In this document: piece by piece, positions 1,141-15,642 of the stretch
How positions within the stretch are numbered: position 1 is the first letter of the stretch
How the letters are laid out: every line of letters begins with the position of its first letter
Source: Octopus vulgaris
Lineage: Eukaryota
NCBI GenBank assembly: GCA_951406725.2
Contig: OX597822.1
Location: forward strand, 12,772,001-12,836,000
Length of the DNA stretch: 64,000 bases
Reading direction: 5' to 3'
The notes under the pieces: generated by a model
Databases searched by the model: none
What the model saw: only the letters and a program-made list of their open reading frames with translations
Told to the model about the DNA's origin: nothing
Program-made: the position numbers and the translations under genes

Positions 1141-2363
1141 CCAGTTCTTGTCTACGCTATAGCGTTAACCATTCAATACAGCTAACTCGTAGACAACCTG
1201 CAAGAAGTAACAGTTAAATCTCTCTAAAATAATATCCTACAGTAGTCACGATATGGACACATGCGATGTGATCATAGATACGGTGGATGGGAGAAAAGAA
1301 ATAAACAAAAATAATAGAATTTATTAATGACAATCATAATATGCTATAAAGTATATTAAACGCTTTTATAAGTCGATACTATAATCTACTGTGTTAGCAG
1401 TGCTATTACAGCATTTCTTAAGGCTGTCTCTACAGATATTATATATAGATTAATAACCAGCCCTAATTTTCGTTACGATGTTAGTTATCAGCGACGTCAG
1501 TTGTGAACAAACACAGAAATAGAAGAAGGCAATCGGGTAATGGGTGTATATGCTCTTTTTTCAGTAGGTTTTGCACCTCCGATGACAATGTACGGAATGC
1601 AATGTGAACATTGGTGTCATTCTGTCAGAACTAAAACAGCGTGCACATACAAATGCTGTTTAAATATCCATCGGTACGGGCTCACCTCAGCTGCTAAAAA
1701 GAACAATGACATCCGATTAAAATCGCAGATTCGAATATGTTTTGCCTGAGAAATGTTGTCCTACATAAAAGACATTGGTTATAGCTAGAAAGTCTTTGTT
1801 CATCTTGCTGAGGTAACTTTGAGCTAAACAACAGCAGATGACAAGTAATATGTATAAACATTTAGTTAAATGCAGGCGCAAACGGGGCTGTGTAATAAGA
1901 GATCGACCTCCAAAGCATACAACAGAGTTCCTGATTTGGGGTAAAATAAAATGCAGGAGGATCAGTTTATTATAATTTTATTCATCATACACTGTTCTCG
2001 GATTCACACACTTATTGCATCAGTCCTTCAGTTCTTTTCAGCCCTGTAAAAGAATTCGGAAGTTTGGGCCTCCAATTACACCTTTCGCAATAACCTTAAA
2101 GACAGGAAACTTTCTGCACCGCTTGAATGGTTTCGGCCTCTGTCCAACTGGATAGTATCTTTGGCAGGTATTATCTACTGCTACCCTGGGATGACTACAC
2201 CTTGTAGGTGGATTTGATTGGCAAAATCAGGCTGAAAGACACCCACCGTATACACACACACACACACACACACGCACATATGAGTGTTTATGCGTATGTG
2301 TGTGTGTGTTACTTTTTGTTTGCCATCCATCCCATTTTAACAGCCGCTGATTGCTTGTTTACG

Positions 2364-2641
2364 TCCCAGTAATTTAGCCATCCGGCAAAACGAGAGGTGT
2401 ATAATAAGTACAAGGGATAGAAACAAGTGTAAAAGAACAACAAAGATGTATTTAAATACAAACACACACATATATATATAAATATACGTATATATATATA
2501 TATATATATATATATACGTATATTTATATATATATGTGTGTGTTTGTATTTAAATACATCTTTGTTGTTCTTTTACACTTGTTTCTATCCCTTGTACTTA
2601 TTATACACCTCTCGTTTTGCCGGATGGCTAAATTACTGGGA
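2364..2641. repeat. Perfect 278-bp palindrome (inverted duplication of a decayed SINE 3' half) centred on (TA)n
   Basis: tcccagtaatttagccatccgg... at 2364 is the exact reverse complement of ...ccggatggctaaattactggga ending at 2641. Centre 2502/2503, no spacer. Confidence 0.97.
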
Positions 2642-3310
2642 ATAAATGGAGTTTAACGCAGCTATAAATCAAATATTTTTACTTAGTTAGGAATATTTCA
2701 TTTAGATTATCTAAATTATCTGCTAATGTTGATACTTTCAATGATAACGCTGAATTTTATAACTCTGCCTTAATTAAAGCAGGTTATACCGAGAAAATTT
2801 TCTACATTGATTCAACTCAGTCTAATTGTAAATTCTATAATGTAGATAATATTCTAGTCTTAAAAGAATTATTGATAACAAACATAACTTATGCAACGAT
2901 ACAAAGCGATTGAAGGGAGATAACCCTTATTTAATCCCCTATTATCGTTCTAAAAGCAAATATAACACTTTCAAAATAATTACAATATAAATACTAGTAA
3001 AAATATTTGGTTAATAATTCCGTACGGGAGACAAATTAAATCTAATCTCCCACTGCTGTTTCGTCAAGCTATTGTTAAGAATTTTCCAAAATATTCTAGG
3101 TATTACTCTATTATCAATTCACATACGATTAGGATCGGTTTTTCCAACACAAAAAATATATTACAAATCATCGTTTCACATAATAACAAACTGTTAAATA
3201 TTAATACATTTACTAATACTAACATTAATTTAGCTAATACTATCCAGCCCTCTAGAGATATTAAGAACAAGGTCATTGTATCTGAAGTCAATTCCAATAG
3301 AATTAAGTTT

Positions 3311-3700
3311 ATGTCAAGTAACTCTAAGATTAAAAATTCTATATACCAGTGTATAATCAGTACTCGTAATAAAGTACGATTTTACATTGGAAGCACATCG
3401 TTAGAGCTATCTAAAAGAATTTCTATCCATTACTCAACATTTAGAGATAGAAATAAGCGTAATAGTACCGGTCTCAGCAAATTAATTTGGGATCTAAAAG
3501 ACCACAATGAACAATTTCATTTAGAATGGTTGATTCTCTCAATCACGATACCTTATGACAAAGGCAAGGAGTTCTGTCTTCTCTGTAATTCTGAGCTACT
3601 TTTCATTATTTATGCTAAAAATCCCCTAGTAAACACGGTTATAGAGCGAGCATACAGATGTAAACATTGGCAAAAACACACTTTTAGTGCATATAAGTAG
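3311..3700 (+). CDS. GIY-YIG endonuclease domain of the Penelope-like element (fragment of a disrupted ORF)
   Basis: SIYQC...FYIGST..LSKRISIH..TF...STGLSKLIWDLK...W.I...PY...CLLC..E...N...E...CKH: GIY-YIG core plus the CxxC/CxH tail seen in PLE endonucleases. Confidence 0.88.
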   Translation: MSSNSKIKNSIYQCIISTRNKVRFYIGSTSLELSKRISIHYSTFRDRNKRNSTGLSKLIWDLKDHNEQFHLEWLILSITIPYDKGKEFCLLCNSELLFIIYAKNPLVNTVIERAYRCKHWQKHTFSAYK

Positions 3701-3709
3701 TCTCTATCA

Positions 3710-5165
3710 TCACTCTCTATATAAACGGCAGTTTGTCTGTCTGTGTGTCTGTGTGTCTGTCAGGGTGTACCCTCACCCTGACCACAGCTTTCAACCGATT
3801 CTGATGAAACTTGACACACACATAGCCCAATGTCATAATTCAAAACTAACGCAGCGAAAACTTTGAAAAGTTCGCCCAGTTCTGAAGAAGATTGATAAAT
3901 TCGACATAGGGTCGAGAATCTAAGCTTTTTATATGCAACACATTTTCTGTTGTAGTTTTCGCAACTTGCAATCGATTTTCACCAAACTCATGGTGAAGCT
4001 TAATGTTACCCTAAGAAACTTAATTCTGACGTTAGTTTTCCATGCAATACCTTACCATCAGAAAAAATCGATAAAATCATGCCATTTTGGGAAATCGCGT
4101 TCAAATTCAAGATGATATATTTTCGACAATATCTTTCACAAATTGGCAGGAATTTTTTTTAAATTCACAGCGAGCATCATGTCTGCTCCAAGGAGCTATA
4201 TGGCCCTTTTTATTCCAATAGGATACTTTATTACTGGAAAAAATCGGTTAATTAAATCATATGTGGCACACATAGCAAACCGATTTGTGTATTAAACATA
4301 AACCACAGACTGTCTAGGGGAAGCAGCTCGACCTTTTTAACTCACTTTGCACCACTGTCGACACCCCTGCTAGCCTCCGGGACGCTGTCTTCCACGACCT
4401 ACAAAACAATTTACGCAACCTAAAATGGCTGGCAGGCAGAGCTATTCTCGCACCCAAAAATACAACCGTCAACTTCATCAATATACAGCTACTTGAAGCT
4501 ATTCCTGGTGATGTCCACGTCTACAAATCTATAGATAGGACAGCAGACCCCGTCGAGCTTGCCGATTATCCTGTTGAATTCCTGAATTCACTTGAACCGC
4601 CAGTCCTGCCGCCACACATCCTGAAGTTAAAAGTCGGTGCGCCCATTATGCTCATCAGGAATTTGGTTCCACCTAAACAGTGCAACGGCACACGTCTGGT
4701 TGTGAAACATTTGGCACCACATTTAATAACGGCCACAATACTTACCGGTTGTGGGAAGGGAGAGGACGTCTTCATTCCACGCATGCACCTTCAACCGTCG
4801 GGCGCTGACCTACCAATCCACTTCAGGCGTGCTCAGTTTCCTGTTAAACTCTGCTTCGCAATGTCCATCAATAAATCCCAAGGCCAAACGCTAAAAGTCG
4901 CTGGGTTACATTTGGGCGAACAGTGCTTCGCCCACGGTCAACTCTGCGTGGGCTGTTCAAGCGTTGGGAGGCGCAATGATGTTTTCATGTTTTCGCCCAA
5001 AGGGACAGCTAGGAACATCGTATACATAGAAGTGTTCGAGTGAAGAGAAGACATTGCAACCTACACATGCGCCTTCGTTCCATAGATGGAAAGGACTAGA
5101 TTGGGATTAGTCGTTGCCTACTAGGGTCTCTTACATACCCGGGCAACGCCGGGCTATGCTGCTAG
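3710..5165 (+). mobile_element. Internally deleted Helitron
   Basis: 5' A|TC(actctctatataaacggc). 3' GC hairpin cccgggcaacgccggg (5138-5153) followed by CTAG|T (5162-5166). No TSD; inserted between A and T. Carries a helicase C-terminus. Confidence 0.92.
4318..5043 (+). CDS. Helitron RepHel PIF1-like SF1 helicase, C-terminal ~240 codons
   Basis: Stop-free frame containing RAILAPKN...YPVEFLNSLEPP.LPPHILKLKVGAPIMLIRNL...CNGTRL...RAQFPVKLCFAMSINKSQGQTL...FAHGQL. No native start codon; the track's 4648 ATG is internal. Confidence 0.93.
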   Translation, partial: GKQLDLFNSLCTTVDTPASLRDAVFHDLQNNLRNLKWLAGRAILAPKNTTVNFINIQLLEAIPGDVHVYKSIDRTADPVELADYPVEFLNSLEPPVLPPHILKLKVGAPIMLIRNLVPPKQCNGTRLVVKHLAPHLITATILTGCGKGEDVFIPRMHLQPSGADLPIHFRRAQFPVKLCFAMSINKSQGQTLKVAGLHLGEQCFAHGQLCVGCSSVGRRNDVFMFSPKGTARNIVYIEVFE

Positions 5166-5390
5166 TTATATATAATTTAAACTTTAATTTCCTTTATATT
5201 TAACATTCACTATTAATATCCCTACTCTTTCTGTAAGCTACTTCTGACGTTATATCATATAACGTCTTTTTAAACAATATTAATAGCGTTCAGTTAATCG
5301 CTTTACAAATTCATCATTTTTTGCTAAAATGTATTACTGATGAGTTTCGTTTTTTAACTTTCGTTTTTAGAAAAAATAATGTGTATATAT

Positions 5391-5477
<87 letters not shown>

Positions 5478-5537
5478 TATGTGTGTATATATATACACAC
5501 ACACGCACGCACATACACATCCACACACACGCACACA

Positions 5538-5598
<61 letters not shown>

Positions 5599-7049
5599 GA
5601 TATGATATGTCCTGTTTATTGTCGCTTTCGTGGTTGGTTCTACAATTTTTCCTGTTTCTGTTGTCGCTCTTTTTATTGCTGTTGTTGTTGTTGTTGTTTC
5701 TGGTCTCTTATTCCTGGCGTTGCTGTGAATGTTTCTATAGTTTTAACAGATCAATAAACGTACACGCGTTAAACCCAATCCAAAATTAATTCAAACGTTA
5801 GCCCCAAATCGAATCGATATTTTTATTGAACTGACCTCCATCGTCAACATGCAACACCAAAAGAAAGTAGTACCACTTTTCCACTCCTACCACTACTACT
5901 ACCAGCACCGTCACCGATCAAAATGCTACACCGAATACCACCAATCAATAATACTACCTTCACTACTACAACCGCTACTACCATCATCACAGTCTGGTAA
6001 AGTATCATTTGAATCTGTTGAAAAACTTGTTATTGCCATCACCGACGCGAACTCCTCCACCCTCTGTCCCCCACCACCACCGCCATTACCCTGACCACCA
6101 CCACCAACACTTCAATAACTGACGTAACTTTTGGTGAGAGTTTGAAAGAATTCTTCCTTTTCCCACAGCTCCTCCTTCTCCATCTTCCTTCTCTTCCACC
6201 TTCCCCTTCTTTTCTTCCTTCTTCCTCCGCACTCACTTCCTCCTTCTTCCTCCCTCCTCTTCCTCCCCATCTTCCTTCTCTTCTTCCTACTCCTTCTCAT
6301 TTATCTCCTCCTCTCTCCTCCTCCTCCTCATCATCATCCCTCCATCTCCCCCTCCACCTCCTCAACTCTCCCTTTACTCCTCATCTCTCCATCTCCTTAT
6401 CCATCCCTATAACTTCTCCTCCTCCTCCTCTCCCCCCTCCTTCTCTTCCCCATCCCTCCCTCTCCACCTCATGTAATTCGTGTTAATCTAATTACAACAG
6501 GCGCAGATATTCTGTGGTTGATGGTGCTCAGGTACGCCTTCAGCCTGAAATATCTACAGACTGAACAGTCGGTAAGCAGGTGTGATCACCGACCGCGAGA
6601 CACGATTACGTAAGACTCTTGTCATTGACAGGACTCCTGACTTGAATCAAATGAGCTGAAAATTTTGATGCCTGACGTCTGGTCCATTGTCAGGGGTTAA
6701 CAGGTCTCTGTTTGTTAGAGAATGCAGCTTGTGGTACACAAAATTTCAATCAAGAACGATGCCTTTCTCTGAAATATTGTGGGCGTTAATTAGTGTCATT
6801 TATACAGACAACATTGCAGATATAATCTGAATCGTGGCTGTCACCATTTGACAGCAAGTCGTTTGGTGGATAAAACTCAAAGCGCTAAAGAGAGGCGCAT
6901 TTCTTTTTAGTCTATCTCTATCGATTCCTTCAAGACAAATTAGTGAGGAAAGAATGGTGCTGTCTTCACTAATTTCGCTGAATGCTTGGTTAAGTGTATG
7001 TGCAGTAAAGGATTTTCTTGAGTGTAGGTCAAGGAAGGACACAACATGA

Positions 7050-13539: not shown

Positions 13540-13542
<3 letters not shown>

Positions 13543-14590
13543 GAAAGTTAAATTGAAAGCTAGTATAGTATATTTATTATTATTATTATAATAAAATGTT
13601 AAAATTTGAAAAATATAGGAATACTCACAATTTTTATTTAAAGTATTTAAACGTTGGGGTTGTGGAATGTATGCAAGATTTCACCGACTCCAGACGATTA
13701 TTCAACAGATTTATATTACTCTGATGTTTTAAAATTTCATAAGTTTCCCTAGAATCAACCTAAAATGGGATATAGTTAGAAGGCCGAAACCTTATAGAAA
13801 TAGTAGGGAAGGTTGTCAGCTTTGTTCTATGGAAACTTATGAAATTTTAAAACATCAGAGTAATATAAATCTGTTGAATAATCGTCTGTAGTCGGGAGTA
13901 TCTTGCATACATTCCACAAGCCGAACGTTTAAATACTTTAATAAAAATTGTGAGTATTCCTATATTTTTCAAATTTTAACTTTTTATTATAATAATAATA
14001 AGAAATATACTATACTTGGTTTCAATTTAACTTTCATAGATGACTAAAGAACTTCACTGTAAACTTGAAATTGGAATTTTTTCTAAATCTAATCTAGTTT
14101 TAAAATTAAGAAAGATCTCCCCCTGTTATAAAATACTATACCTACTCATAAAAATTAATAAGAGTTTTTTCCCTACTCTCTGTAAAGGGGATTAATGACC
14201 TTTTGACACTGACCTAGTTCCTCTCACCAAATAGCAGTAATTGGCATTTTGTTAGTGGCAACTTGAATTCCTTTTATGGTATTCTGAAACCTCCCCTACT
14301 CATTCCTACAACTAAAAATCTTTATTACATCTATTCTTATAGCAGTCAGACACAACCATAGCTTGATCAGTCAGTGGCTGGACTTCACAACCTCAGATGT
14401 TCTTAAAATTTAAATCTACATTTTTATCTGTATATCTACCTTCTCTATAGTGTTACTACTTGATTTGAAAGCCCTTGTACTATTGTATAATTGACTGATG
14501 AGCACTCAGCATCTTAAATCTGCTGTAATACTTACAACTTTTAATAAAATGATGTAGTGCAAACCAATTGTACCAAATTACCTGGAGTCA
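13540..14590 (+). mobile_element. Penelope-like 3' fragment with an inverted 5' copy
   Basis: From ~13755 the frame reads INLKWDIVRRPKPYRNSREGCQLCSMETYEILKHQSNINLLNNRL*..SCIH (GIY-YIG tail). 13540-13754 is an inverted copy of 13825-14038. Decayed HHR at 14491-14576. Flanked by (TA)n. Confidence 0.85.
14491..14576 (+). ncRNA. Degenerate hammerhead motif
   Basis: ttga-CTGATGA-gcact...agtgc-AAAC-caattg-TA-ccaa. Stem II and the palindromic stem III are retained; the GAAA core is mutated. Confidence 0.6.
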
Positions 14591-15510: not shown

Positions 15511-15642
15511 ATTTATTATATAGAAGGAGCTTCTACAGGACTAGTACTGTTTCATTCAAGAGAAATCTTCAGGAAGCTTCCTGAAGATTTCTCTTGAATG
15601 AAACAGTACTAGTCCTGTAGAAGCTCCTTCTATATAATAAAT
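15511..15642. repeat. Perfect 132-bp palindrome containing an HHR-like core
   Basis: Centre gaag|cttc at 15576/15577. Right arm reads CTGAAGA-t-ttc-tctt-gaa-t-GAAA-c-agtact-a-GTC. The element continues to 15710, then (TA)n. Confidence 0.93.

Follow-up and report, generated by a model that had tools for sequence, protein, structure and literature searches.

Introduction

Penelope-like elements (PLEs) leave inverted, 5′-truncated copies and are biased towards microsatellites, with (TA)n as the target in Naiads and Hydra, according to Craig et al. (2021; PMC8557442). In the same account, the Hydra clade is set apart by the lack of CCHH, a change of the DKG motif to DKT, a modified CxC...C linker, a short length, and insertion into (TA)n, and it is further credited with a canonical hammerhead ribozyme in the pLTR. 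For the integration of PLEs, an in vitro system is called for there that could explain both the inverted structures and the microsatellite bias (PMC8557442). In the literature searched, we found no published link of Penelope-like elements with snap-back or fold-back synthesis.

Here, we describe a locus in Octopus vulgaris at which a perfect inverted duplication of host DNA abuts an insertion of this kind. The window, that is, the whole stretch of DNA that was analyzed, comprises 64,000 nucleotides of contig OX597822.1 (assembly GCA_951406725.2, positions 12,772,001 to 12,836,000, forward strand), and all positions below are counted from its first letter unless another locus is named.

A perfect palindrome of host DNA centred in (TA)n

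A repeat search of the window placed the palindrome at 2364–2641 (278 bp), with two arms of 139 nt each (2364–2502 and 2503–2641) that are 100% complementary (0 of 139 differences), have a spacer of 0 nt, and meet in a pure (TA)14 at 2489–2516. The spacerless palindrome centred in (TA)n that had been noticed in the original prediction is thereby confirmed. The features of the locus are as follows:

2291..2427, no strand assigned: dispersed SINE-like host repeat of about 135 nt, with 70–78% partial matches to many genomic copies
2364..2502, forward strand: left (ancestral) arm, holding the host repeat's 3′ portion, unique sequence, (CA)5, (TA)5, and one half of the TA centre
2489..2516, no strand assigned: (TA)14 self-complementary centre, read from the sequence
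2503..2641, reverse strand: right arm, exact inverted duplicate of 2364–2502
2640..2641, no strand assigned: GA common to the arm end and the element terminus, a 2-nt junction microhomology
2642..2684, reverse strand: inverted 3′-terminal head of a Penelope-like element, its last 42–44 nt, ending in ...AAACTCCATTTATTC, the canonical terminus
2681..3710, forward strand: 5′-truncated direct body, with the end of the putative RT region and the predicted GIY-YIG endonuclease ORF
3711..5165, forward strand: nested non-autonomous Helitron-like unit of 1455 bp, with a Pif1-type helicase remnant, which splits the element
5166..~5375, forward strand: element 3′ UTR resumes, matching positions 2533–2722 of locus L014 at 92%
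5376..5600, no strand assigned: compound (CA)n/(TA)n microsatellite, in place of the element 3′ end and the target

About 106–114 of the 139 letters of each arm lie outside TA or CA runs, and as a single strand, the 278 bases form one hairpin at −156 kcal/mol, with z = −39 relative to 100 shuffled versions. With more than 100 non-microsatellite letters per arm and a hairpin of this strength, chance is excluded as the origin of the palindrome. The assembly contains the palindrome, and at least one read set contains its outer junction.

Genome-wide searches were made in the octopus's own assembly (2.8 Gb, 227 sequences). The query 2300–2502 returned 68 matches, with 100% identity in the two arms only; the remaining matches were partial, at 71–91%, to the dispersed repeat of about 135 nt or to the CA/TA microsatellite part, and the arm sequence as a unit was found at this locus only in the genome. 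Alignments of the repeat cross the arm boundary at 2363/2364 without a break, and because the repeat is continuous there, the left arm is taken as the original context and the right arm as a local inverted duplicate. This continuity bears out the prediction that pre-existing host DNA had been duplicated, but its naming as a SINE is unconfirmed, as the Rfam search of the window gave no match to the arm repeat. We also considered that a larger palindrome might have been cut by the element and rejected this, since no inverted copy of 1–2363 is present anywhere in the window.

The element to the right of the palindrome

The element sequence starts directly after the right arm, within 0–2 nt, the GA at 2640–2641 being ambiguous between the two; this overlap was shown by aligning the reverse complement of 2600–2720 with four other element 3′ ends. 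The letters of the head include GAATAAATGG, and the stretch 2641–2684 matches positions 2852→2809 of L014 and the 3′ ends of other copies. The predicted weld of palindrome and element therefore exists to within 0–2 nt, but the partner in it is an inverted 3′-terminal head rather than the 5′ end of the element. At 2681, the direct body sets in, so that its first 4 nt (2681–2684) also belong to the head. Up to 3710, it is 92–94% identical to the 40 copies that were scored out of 3186 first-look candidates, and its ORF at 2966–3700 aligns with the C-terminus of a 584-aa ORF at locus L020.

The Helitron-like unit that splits the element contains a Pif1_2B domain (E 1.1e-15) and has eight other full-length copies with the same ends at 93–98% identity (2931 first-look candidates). 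Past the resumed 3′ UTR, homology to the element fades at about 5356–5375, the last 110–130 nt including the 3′ terminus are missing, and the compound microsatellite that follows has a pure TA run at 5408–5473 within it. At 6001–6500, the window also contains a C/T-rich low-complexity stretch with a GC skew of −0.78 and long Pro/Ser-rich open frames.

Family identity

The 584-aa ORF of L020, a better-preserved copy of the element, has 276 database relatives, and the named ones come from octopus and argonaut. The motifs FDIxxFYxSI, DVxMGSxD, and GLYRDDGL, which may be RT motifs A, B, and C, are kept in 24 homologues, and among the matches listed, the precomputed domain annotation of 2 of 120 homologues contains PF00078. 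Pfam searches of the 584-aa L020 ORF and of the window ORFs gave nothing beyond Pif1_2B, and a profile of 25 sequences found no credible match in the PDB. PF01541 matched 2 of the 25 aligned members, and in the relative P0083, it matched residues 583–652 with an E value of 3.7e-4 and a score of 21.2 bits, just under the cut-off of 22.6. The YIG, R, H, and CxxC-E positions are kept at the C-terminus, including in the window ORF at 2966–3700. Although the profile score is weak, alignment and position are clear, and the family is therefore predicted to encode a GIY-YIG endonuclease C-terminal to its putative RT.

Between the GIY-like and YIG motifs, L020, the window copy, and the 24 homologues are all without a pair of cysteines, and the clades Penelope/Poseidon, Neptune, and Nematis were set aside because their CCHH (two Cys between GIY and YIG) is absent. 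The DKT motif is found in 21 of 24 homologues and in the upstream frame of L020 (SDKTGNLY), while a CxC...CPLxGxC linker is present in 24 of 24 homologues and lost in the octopus-type copies (L020 768–2522, window 2966–3700). The longest copy seen measures at least 2.28 kb. Judged from these sequence traits, that is, DKT, the CxC...C linker of the relatives, the lack of the Cys pair, the short length, and the TA targeting, the element fits the Hydra clade of Penelope-like elements of Craig et al. (2021). No hammerhead ribozyme was matched at the gathering score in the window and four loci, among whose copies there is no full-length 5′ region, and none was found at E values up to 1 in three loci, where sub-threshold “miRNA” matches proved to be TA microsatellite.

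The linker cysteines have been lost, yet near-identical young copies exist, and the family still sits in (TA)n. The retention of the (TA)n location despite this loss is relevant to a proposal in print, according to which TA targeting is directed by the linker.

Insertion habits of the family and search for recurrence

The terminal 20-mer of the family has 587 exact occurrences genome-wide against 0 for the reversed control, and among the 100 places listed, there are 12 close pairs of termini on opposite strands, 11 of them within 1.5 kb and all of them tails-out. An inverted 3′-terminal head abutting a 5′-truncated direct copy recurs at 22 other distinct loci, with heads of 23–560 nt and head/body joints that range from an 11-nt overlap to a 7-nt gap, and the element 5′ ends lie at differing points among 11 copies. 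The family thus has the insertion habits of the Penelope type, namely 5′ truncation and an inverted truncated copy abutting a direct one. The 104 3′ ends that were sampled fall into 45 next to a TA run, 25 that run into more element sequence, and 34 of other kinds, with much of the sequence adjoining these last being TA- or CA-rich; the 45 ends that adjoin a TA run support the targeting of (TA)n by the family. Given the family-typical head, the truncation, and the (TA)n habit, everything to the right of 2641 is an ordinary insertion of the family, and only the inverted host segment is unusual.

At the 25 ends that run on (e.g., L015, L016, and L017), a conserved stretch, …TATATTATTCAAAATATTCC…ACGAAGTTTCTACC…, lies past the canonical terminus and probably represents the unit that follows in a partial tandem (pLTR). 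A further observation concerns very short back-to-back insertions that consist of two inverted 3′-terminal stumps only (L045, L052, and L063), with terminal 20-mers 20–100 nt apart and all tails-out.

A host fold-back at the junction was found in 0 of the 103 other sampled 3′ ends and in 0 of 14 ends that abut a non-A base. The latter are all 13 genome-wide matches of one exact pattern, the canonical terminus before a non-A base, together with the sole other match of a second pattern, the shorter terminus variant of the window before a non-A base, which occurs twice genome-wide including the window's own. The idea that such fold-backs are a general footprint of this family's integration does not survive these counts.

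Beside the TA tracts of this genome, TA-flanked palindromic elements of MITE-like form are common, with arms that are 87–99% identical, for example at L020 2859–3258, at L051, at L072 (1622–2110 and 2130–2421), and in the window at 13540–14038. The palindrome at L020 2859–3258 has 2482 first-look candidates genome-wide, and its arms are 99% alike to each other vs 90% to the best full-length copy elsewhere. High-identity palindromes near other element ends were set aside as separate elements, that of L020 being multi-copy genome-wide; those of L051, L054, and L056 were compared within the local locus set only. The window holds a second perfect spacerless palindrome at 15511–15642, with 66-nt arms and the centre AAGCTT, on the right-hand side of a TA run and close to it. 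The element to which it belongs is multi-copy and very young, with 40 of 40 scored places (446 first-look candidates, the window's own included) being 100% identical over 189 nt.

Read evidence for the junction

Reads were consulted as Logan short-read contigs (k = 31 graph) from runs X1, X2, X16, and X4 (X4 being from organism B); X1 may be the assembly's own sample, and X2 is from another study. The centre of the palindrome is crossed by no contig, and parts that are uncovered carry no weight here. In X1, a contig of 101 nt (depth 33.8) covers 2612–2712 with 0 differences, reaching 30 letters to the left of the arm/head junction (one under the 31 rule) and 71 letters to its right. This contig overlaps the arm contig (depth 52, ending at 2641) by exactly 30 nt, that is, k − 1; such an overlap marks a real branch in the k = 31 graph, so that the arm/head junction exists in the X1 reads. 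Arm contigs of X1 and X2 cover 2560–2641 with 0 differences and end exactly at 2641, and the depth of that of X2 (16.8) is close to the 17.6 of the window letter at 2735. The stretch 2323–2363 had no contig in X1 or X2, no contig over the arm/head junction came from X2, X16, or X4, and X4 gave none on the arm. The contigs of X1, X2, X16, and X4 showed no allele that has the element and lacks the right arm.

A contig of X16 (217 nt, depth 32) covers 2295–2445, is unbroken at 2363/2364, and has 3 differences in 151 nt. A k = 31 graph with the arm/head junction would branch there, and the unbroken contig therefore hints that the palindrome is absent in the X16 sample, which differs by about 2% here and may be a distant lineage. 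Contigs with the window letter at 2735 have a summed depth of 45 in X16, 18 in X2, and 0 in X4, which weakly suggests that X16 and X2 carry the element copy.

Age of the element and age of the palindrome

The element copy of the window carries 27 private substitutions in 1216 sites, or 2.2% (sites covered by at least 10 other copies, with 14–46 per site), a count against 11 copies having given 39 of 1239. The head has one private substitution, at 2662, which occurs in 0 of 107 other ends. In X1, the window letters at 2735, 2814, and 2815 have depths of about 42, 31, and 31, compared with 33.8 for the junction contig; at such single-copy depth, they are private to the locus rather than inherited from a second copy. 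If the arms were as old as the element, with 2.2% change per lineage, about 6 arm differences would be expected where 0 are seen (P(0) of about 0.002 by our arithmetic). An origin of the inverted segment and the insertion in the same event would fit 0 of 139 in the arms against 27 of 1216 in the element and 1 of 44 in the head only if the arms have been homogenized, and the counts speak against the claim that the palindrome was produced together with the integration.

The nested 1455-bp unit and the lost 3′ end of 110–130 nt indicate that time has elapsed since integration, and the replacement of that end by microsatellite points to later instability at the TA tracts here. At L072, a spacerless palindrome of the element's own sequence, with 179-nt arms, has an arm identity of 96.9%; small palindromes at such loci can therefore diverge, and in this single case, there is no sign of a general arm homogenization. 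A second, younger stump insertion that brought the head along with the arm was likewise rejected, as the private substitution of the head, a single site, looks old.

How the palindrome may have arisen

The reading that we tentatively prefer, with a confidence that stops a little short of even, is a young snap-back inverted duplication of the host flank at the TA tract after the element had inserted. The locus consists of an old 5′-truncated Hydra-type element in (TA)n in its usual form, with the palindrome exactly between the remaining TA run and the head, and it has what a fold-back inverted duplication leaves behind, namely a spacer of 0 nt, (TA)14 as a seed, and a 2-nt GA overlap at the outer junction. 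A 3′ end would have arisen inside the self-complementary (TA)n, at a stalled fork, from breakage at a hairpin or cruciform of TA repeats, or through a later abortive cut by the TA-targeting endonuclease of active relatives. This end may have folded back on itself in the (TA)n and primed the copying of 139 nt of its own strand, with either a host polymerase or the element's reverse transcriptase as the copying enzyme. The new end could then have rejoined at the first non-TA letters, which are those of the element head, by way of the 2-nt GA microhomology, and the TA repeats between arm and head would have been lost on rejoining. That the accident was due to host replication or repair, or else to a later abortive endonuclease cut, we regard as nearly an even prospect. 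The nick, snap-back, and self-priming in (TA)n of the original prediction are retained here insofar as a spacerless fold-back of the host flank is seeded in (TA)n; the predicted synthesis of about 120 nt has to be corrected to arms of 139 nt, and the timing at integration is not favoured.

A later accident of this kind is favoured by the age mismatch (2.2% private in the element vs 0 of 139 in the arms), by the time and the TA-tract instability to which the Helitron-like insertion and the missing 3′ end point, by the irregularity of fold-back in the family (0 of 103 and 0 of 14 ends), by the divergence of the L072 palindrome to 96.9%, and by the X16 contig that runs unbroken through 2363/2364. 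Snap-back from short inverted repeats, like fold-back duplication through hairpins, is an established accident of repair and replication (PMC7999016; PMC7467729, PMC11724301). Yet the duplicate ends 0–2 nt from the exact 3′ terminus of the element, so that a later accident requires a chance rejoining at the first non-TA letters, whereas priming on the 3′ end of an RNA predicts this coincidence directly. TA tracts of at least 20 nt number 61 per 64 kb, against 587 exact terminal 20-mers, or hundreds to a few thousand family ends, genome-wide, and we roughly reckon that far fewer than 1% of TA tracts adjoin an end of the family; unless tracts flanked by the element break unusually easily or are cut again by its endonuclease, the adjacency would then be coincidental. 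In addition, old arms could stay identical if a palindrome with a TA centre is corrected from one arm to the other, and the support from X16 is one unbroken contig from a possibly distant lineage.

That adjacency needs no coincidence if the palindrome is a footprint of the integration itself, in which the 3′ end left in (TA)n by the endonuclease cut of the top strand would have snapped back and been extended by 139 nt, with the arms kept identical afterwards, a course of events that we think doubtful. The extended end would next have paired over 2 nt with the 3′ end of the element RNA and primed there, giving the 44-nt inverted head, a step that we likewise hold to be unlikely; and its joining to the other cDNA by the 4-nt microhomology, with the arms kept identical by hairpin-based correction, is to be viewed with the same reserve. 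Speaking for such a footprint, the right arm abuts the exact 3′ terminus, the usual start of top-strand priming in the family, and (TA)n directly precedes the same head elsewhere (45 of 104 ends; heads at 22 other loci). All 12 of the close opposite-strand terminus pairs, among the 100 places listed, are tails-out. Snap-back on cDNA, and less often on nearby target DNA, is described for R2 5′ junctions in PMC11371274, and inverted duplications at L1 targets are documented in PMC11702581. But 0 arm differences, set against 2.2% in the element and the change in the head, have a P of about 0.002 without homogenization, no second case was seen among the 103 and 14 other ends, and the X16 contig passes the arm boundary without a break. 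On the account given in PMC7999016, a perfect palindrome with a TA centre would also be expected to be short-lived.

Improbable, in our estimate, is an artefact of assembly or sequencing, whether by a mis-join in a TA run, the welding of two alleles, or an equalization of the arms by polishing. Sequencing is difficult in (TA)n tracts and in palindromes, the centre is crossed by none of the short-read contigs, the ratio of arm to junction depth in X1 (52 vs 33.8) is 1.5 where 2 would be expected, and X1 may be the assembly's own sample. Against this stand the X1 junction contig with its 0 differences and its k − 1 overlap with the arm contig, and the arm contig itself, which is unbroken over 121–122 nt in X1 and X2, so that no arm differences were polished away. 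A fold-back read would, besides, invert the whole remainder rather than 139 nt, and there is no N in the window. An insertion of a palindromic miniature transposon, of MITE or foldback type, into the TA tract would recall the TA-flanked multi-copy palindromes that are common here (L020 2859–3258, L051, L072, and window 13540–14038), but the arm unit is unique in the genome and the left arm is continuous with the host repeat upstream. We rejected this origin, which we consider extremely improbable, because the arm sequence is found at this locus only.

Significance and comparison with known systems

The locus can be read as a chain of junctions, from the host flank through its inverted copy and the inverted 3′ end of the element to the truncated body, with overlaps of 2 nt and 4 nt at the last two joints. 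TA tracts targeted by these elements would also seed palindromes of host DNA, which are potential fragile sites. Were the footprint reading true, Penelope integration itself would make perfect host-DNA palindromes that persist by arm-to-arm correction. The value of the locus is modest, as the evidence on timing points away from integration, and it offers a polymorphism that can be tested.

Compared with the PLEs described by Craig et al. (2021; PMC8557442), the element here is alike in being short, in having a single ORF of putative RT and C-terminal GIY-YIG, in lacking the CC pair, and in carrying DKT, and also in its (TA)n target, its 5′ truncation, and its inverted copy or head abutting a direct copy. 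The elements in that description invert their own sequence, whereas here, 139 nt of host flank are inverted too, outside the head. Unlike their homologues, the octopus-type copies are without the linker cysteines, and no hammerhead was found in the copies examined.

Inverted junction segments that arise when a 3′ end, ahead of the formation of the 5′ junction, primes DNA-templated synthesis on itself or on target DNA close by are also reported for the snap-back 5′ junctions of R2 in engineered retrotransposition (PMC11371274). In the R2 cases described there, it is the 3′ end of the cDNA that snaps back, mostly on cDNA, whereas here, the template copied is the target flank, with the turn in a TA microsatellite, and the timing relative to integration is doubtful. 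The fold-backs and inverted duplications reported for L1 (PMC11702581) are comparable in that ends made by an endonuclease become inverted duplications or fold-back junctions derived from hairpins, with reverse-transcribed sequence at some junctions; they are large somatic rearrangements in cultured cells, in contrast to a 278-bp germline palindrome.

In yeast, 3′ ends likewise self-prime on short inverted repeats in the hairpin-primed fold-backs of PMC7467729, PMC11724301, and PMC7999016, and (TA)n is an ideal seed for a fold-back of this sort. The templated insertions at yeast breaks in these reports are mostly of 5–34 nt, and the larger fold-backs are chromosome-scale, so that the interstitial case of 139 nt, rejoined through a 2-nt microhomology, falls between the two. 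As this type of accident is already known from R2, L1, and DNA-break repair, the single locus described here is likely a documented example and not a new mechanism. In its form, it resembles the human PATRRs as presented in PMC7999016, which are near-perfect, several hundred bp long, and AT-rich in the centre, and which undergo cruciform extrusion and breakage. The PATRRs are more than 90% AT throughout, whereas the palindrome at this locus has arms of mixed composition derived from a dispersed repeat.
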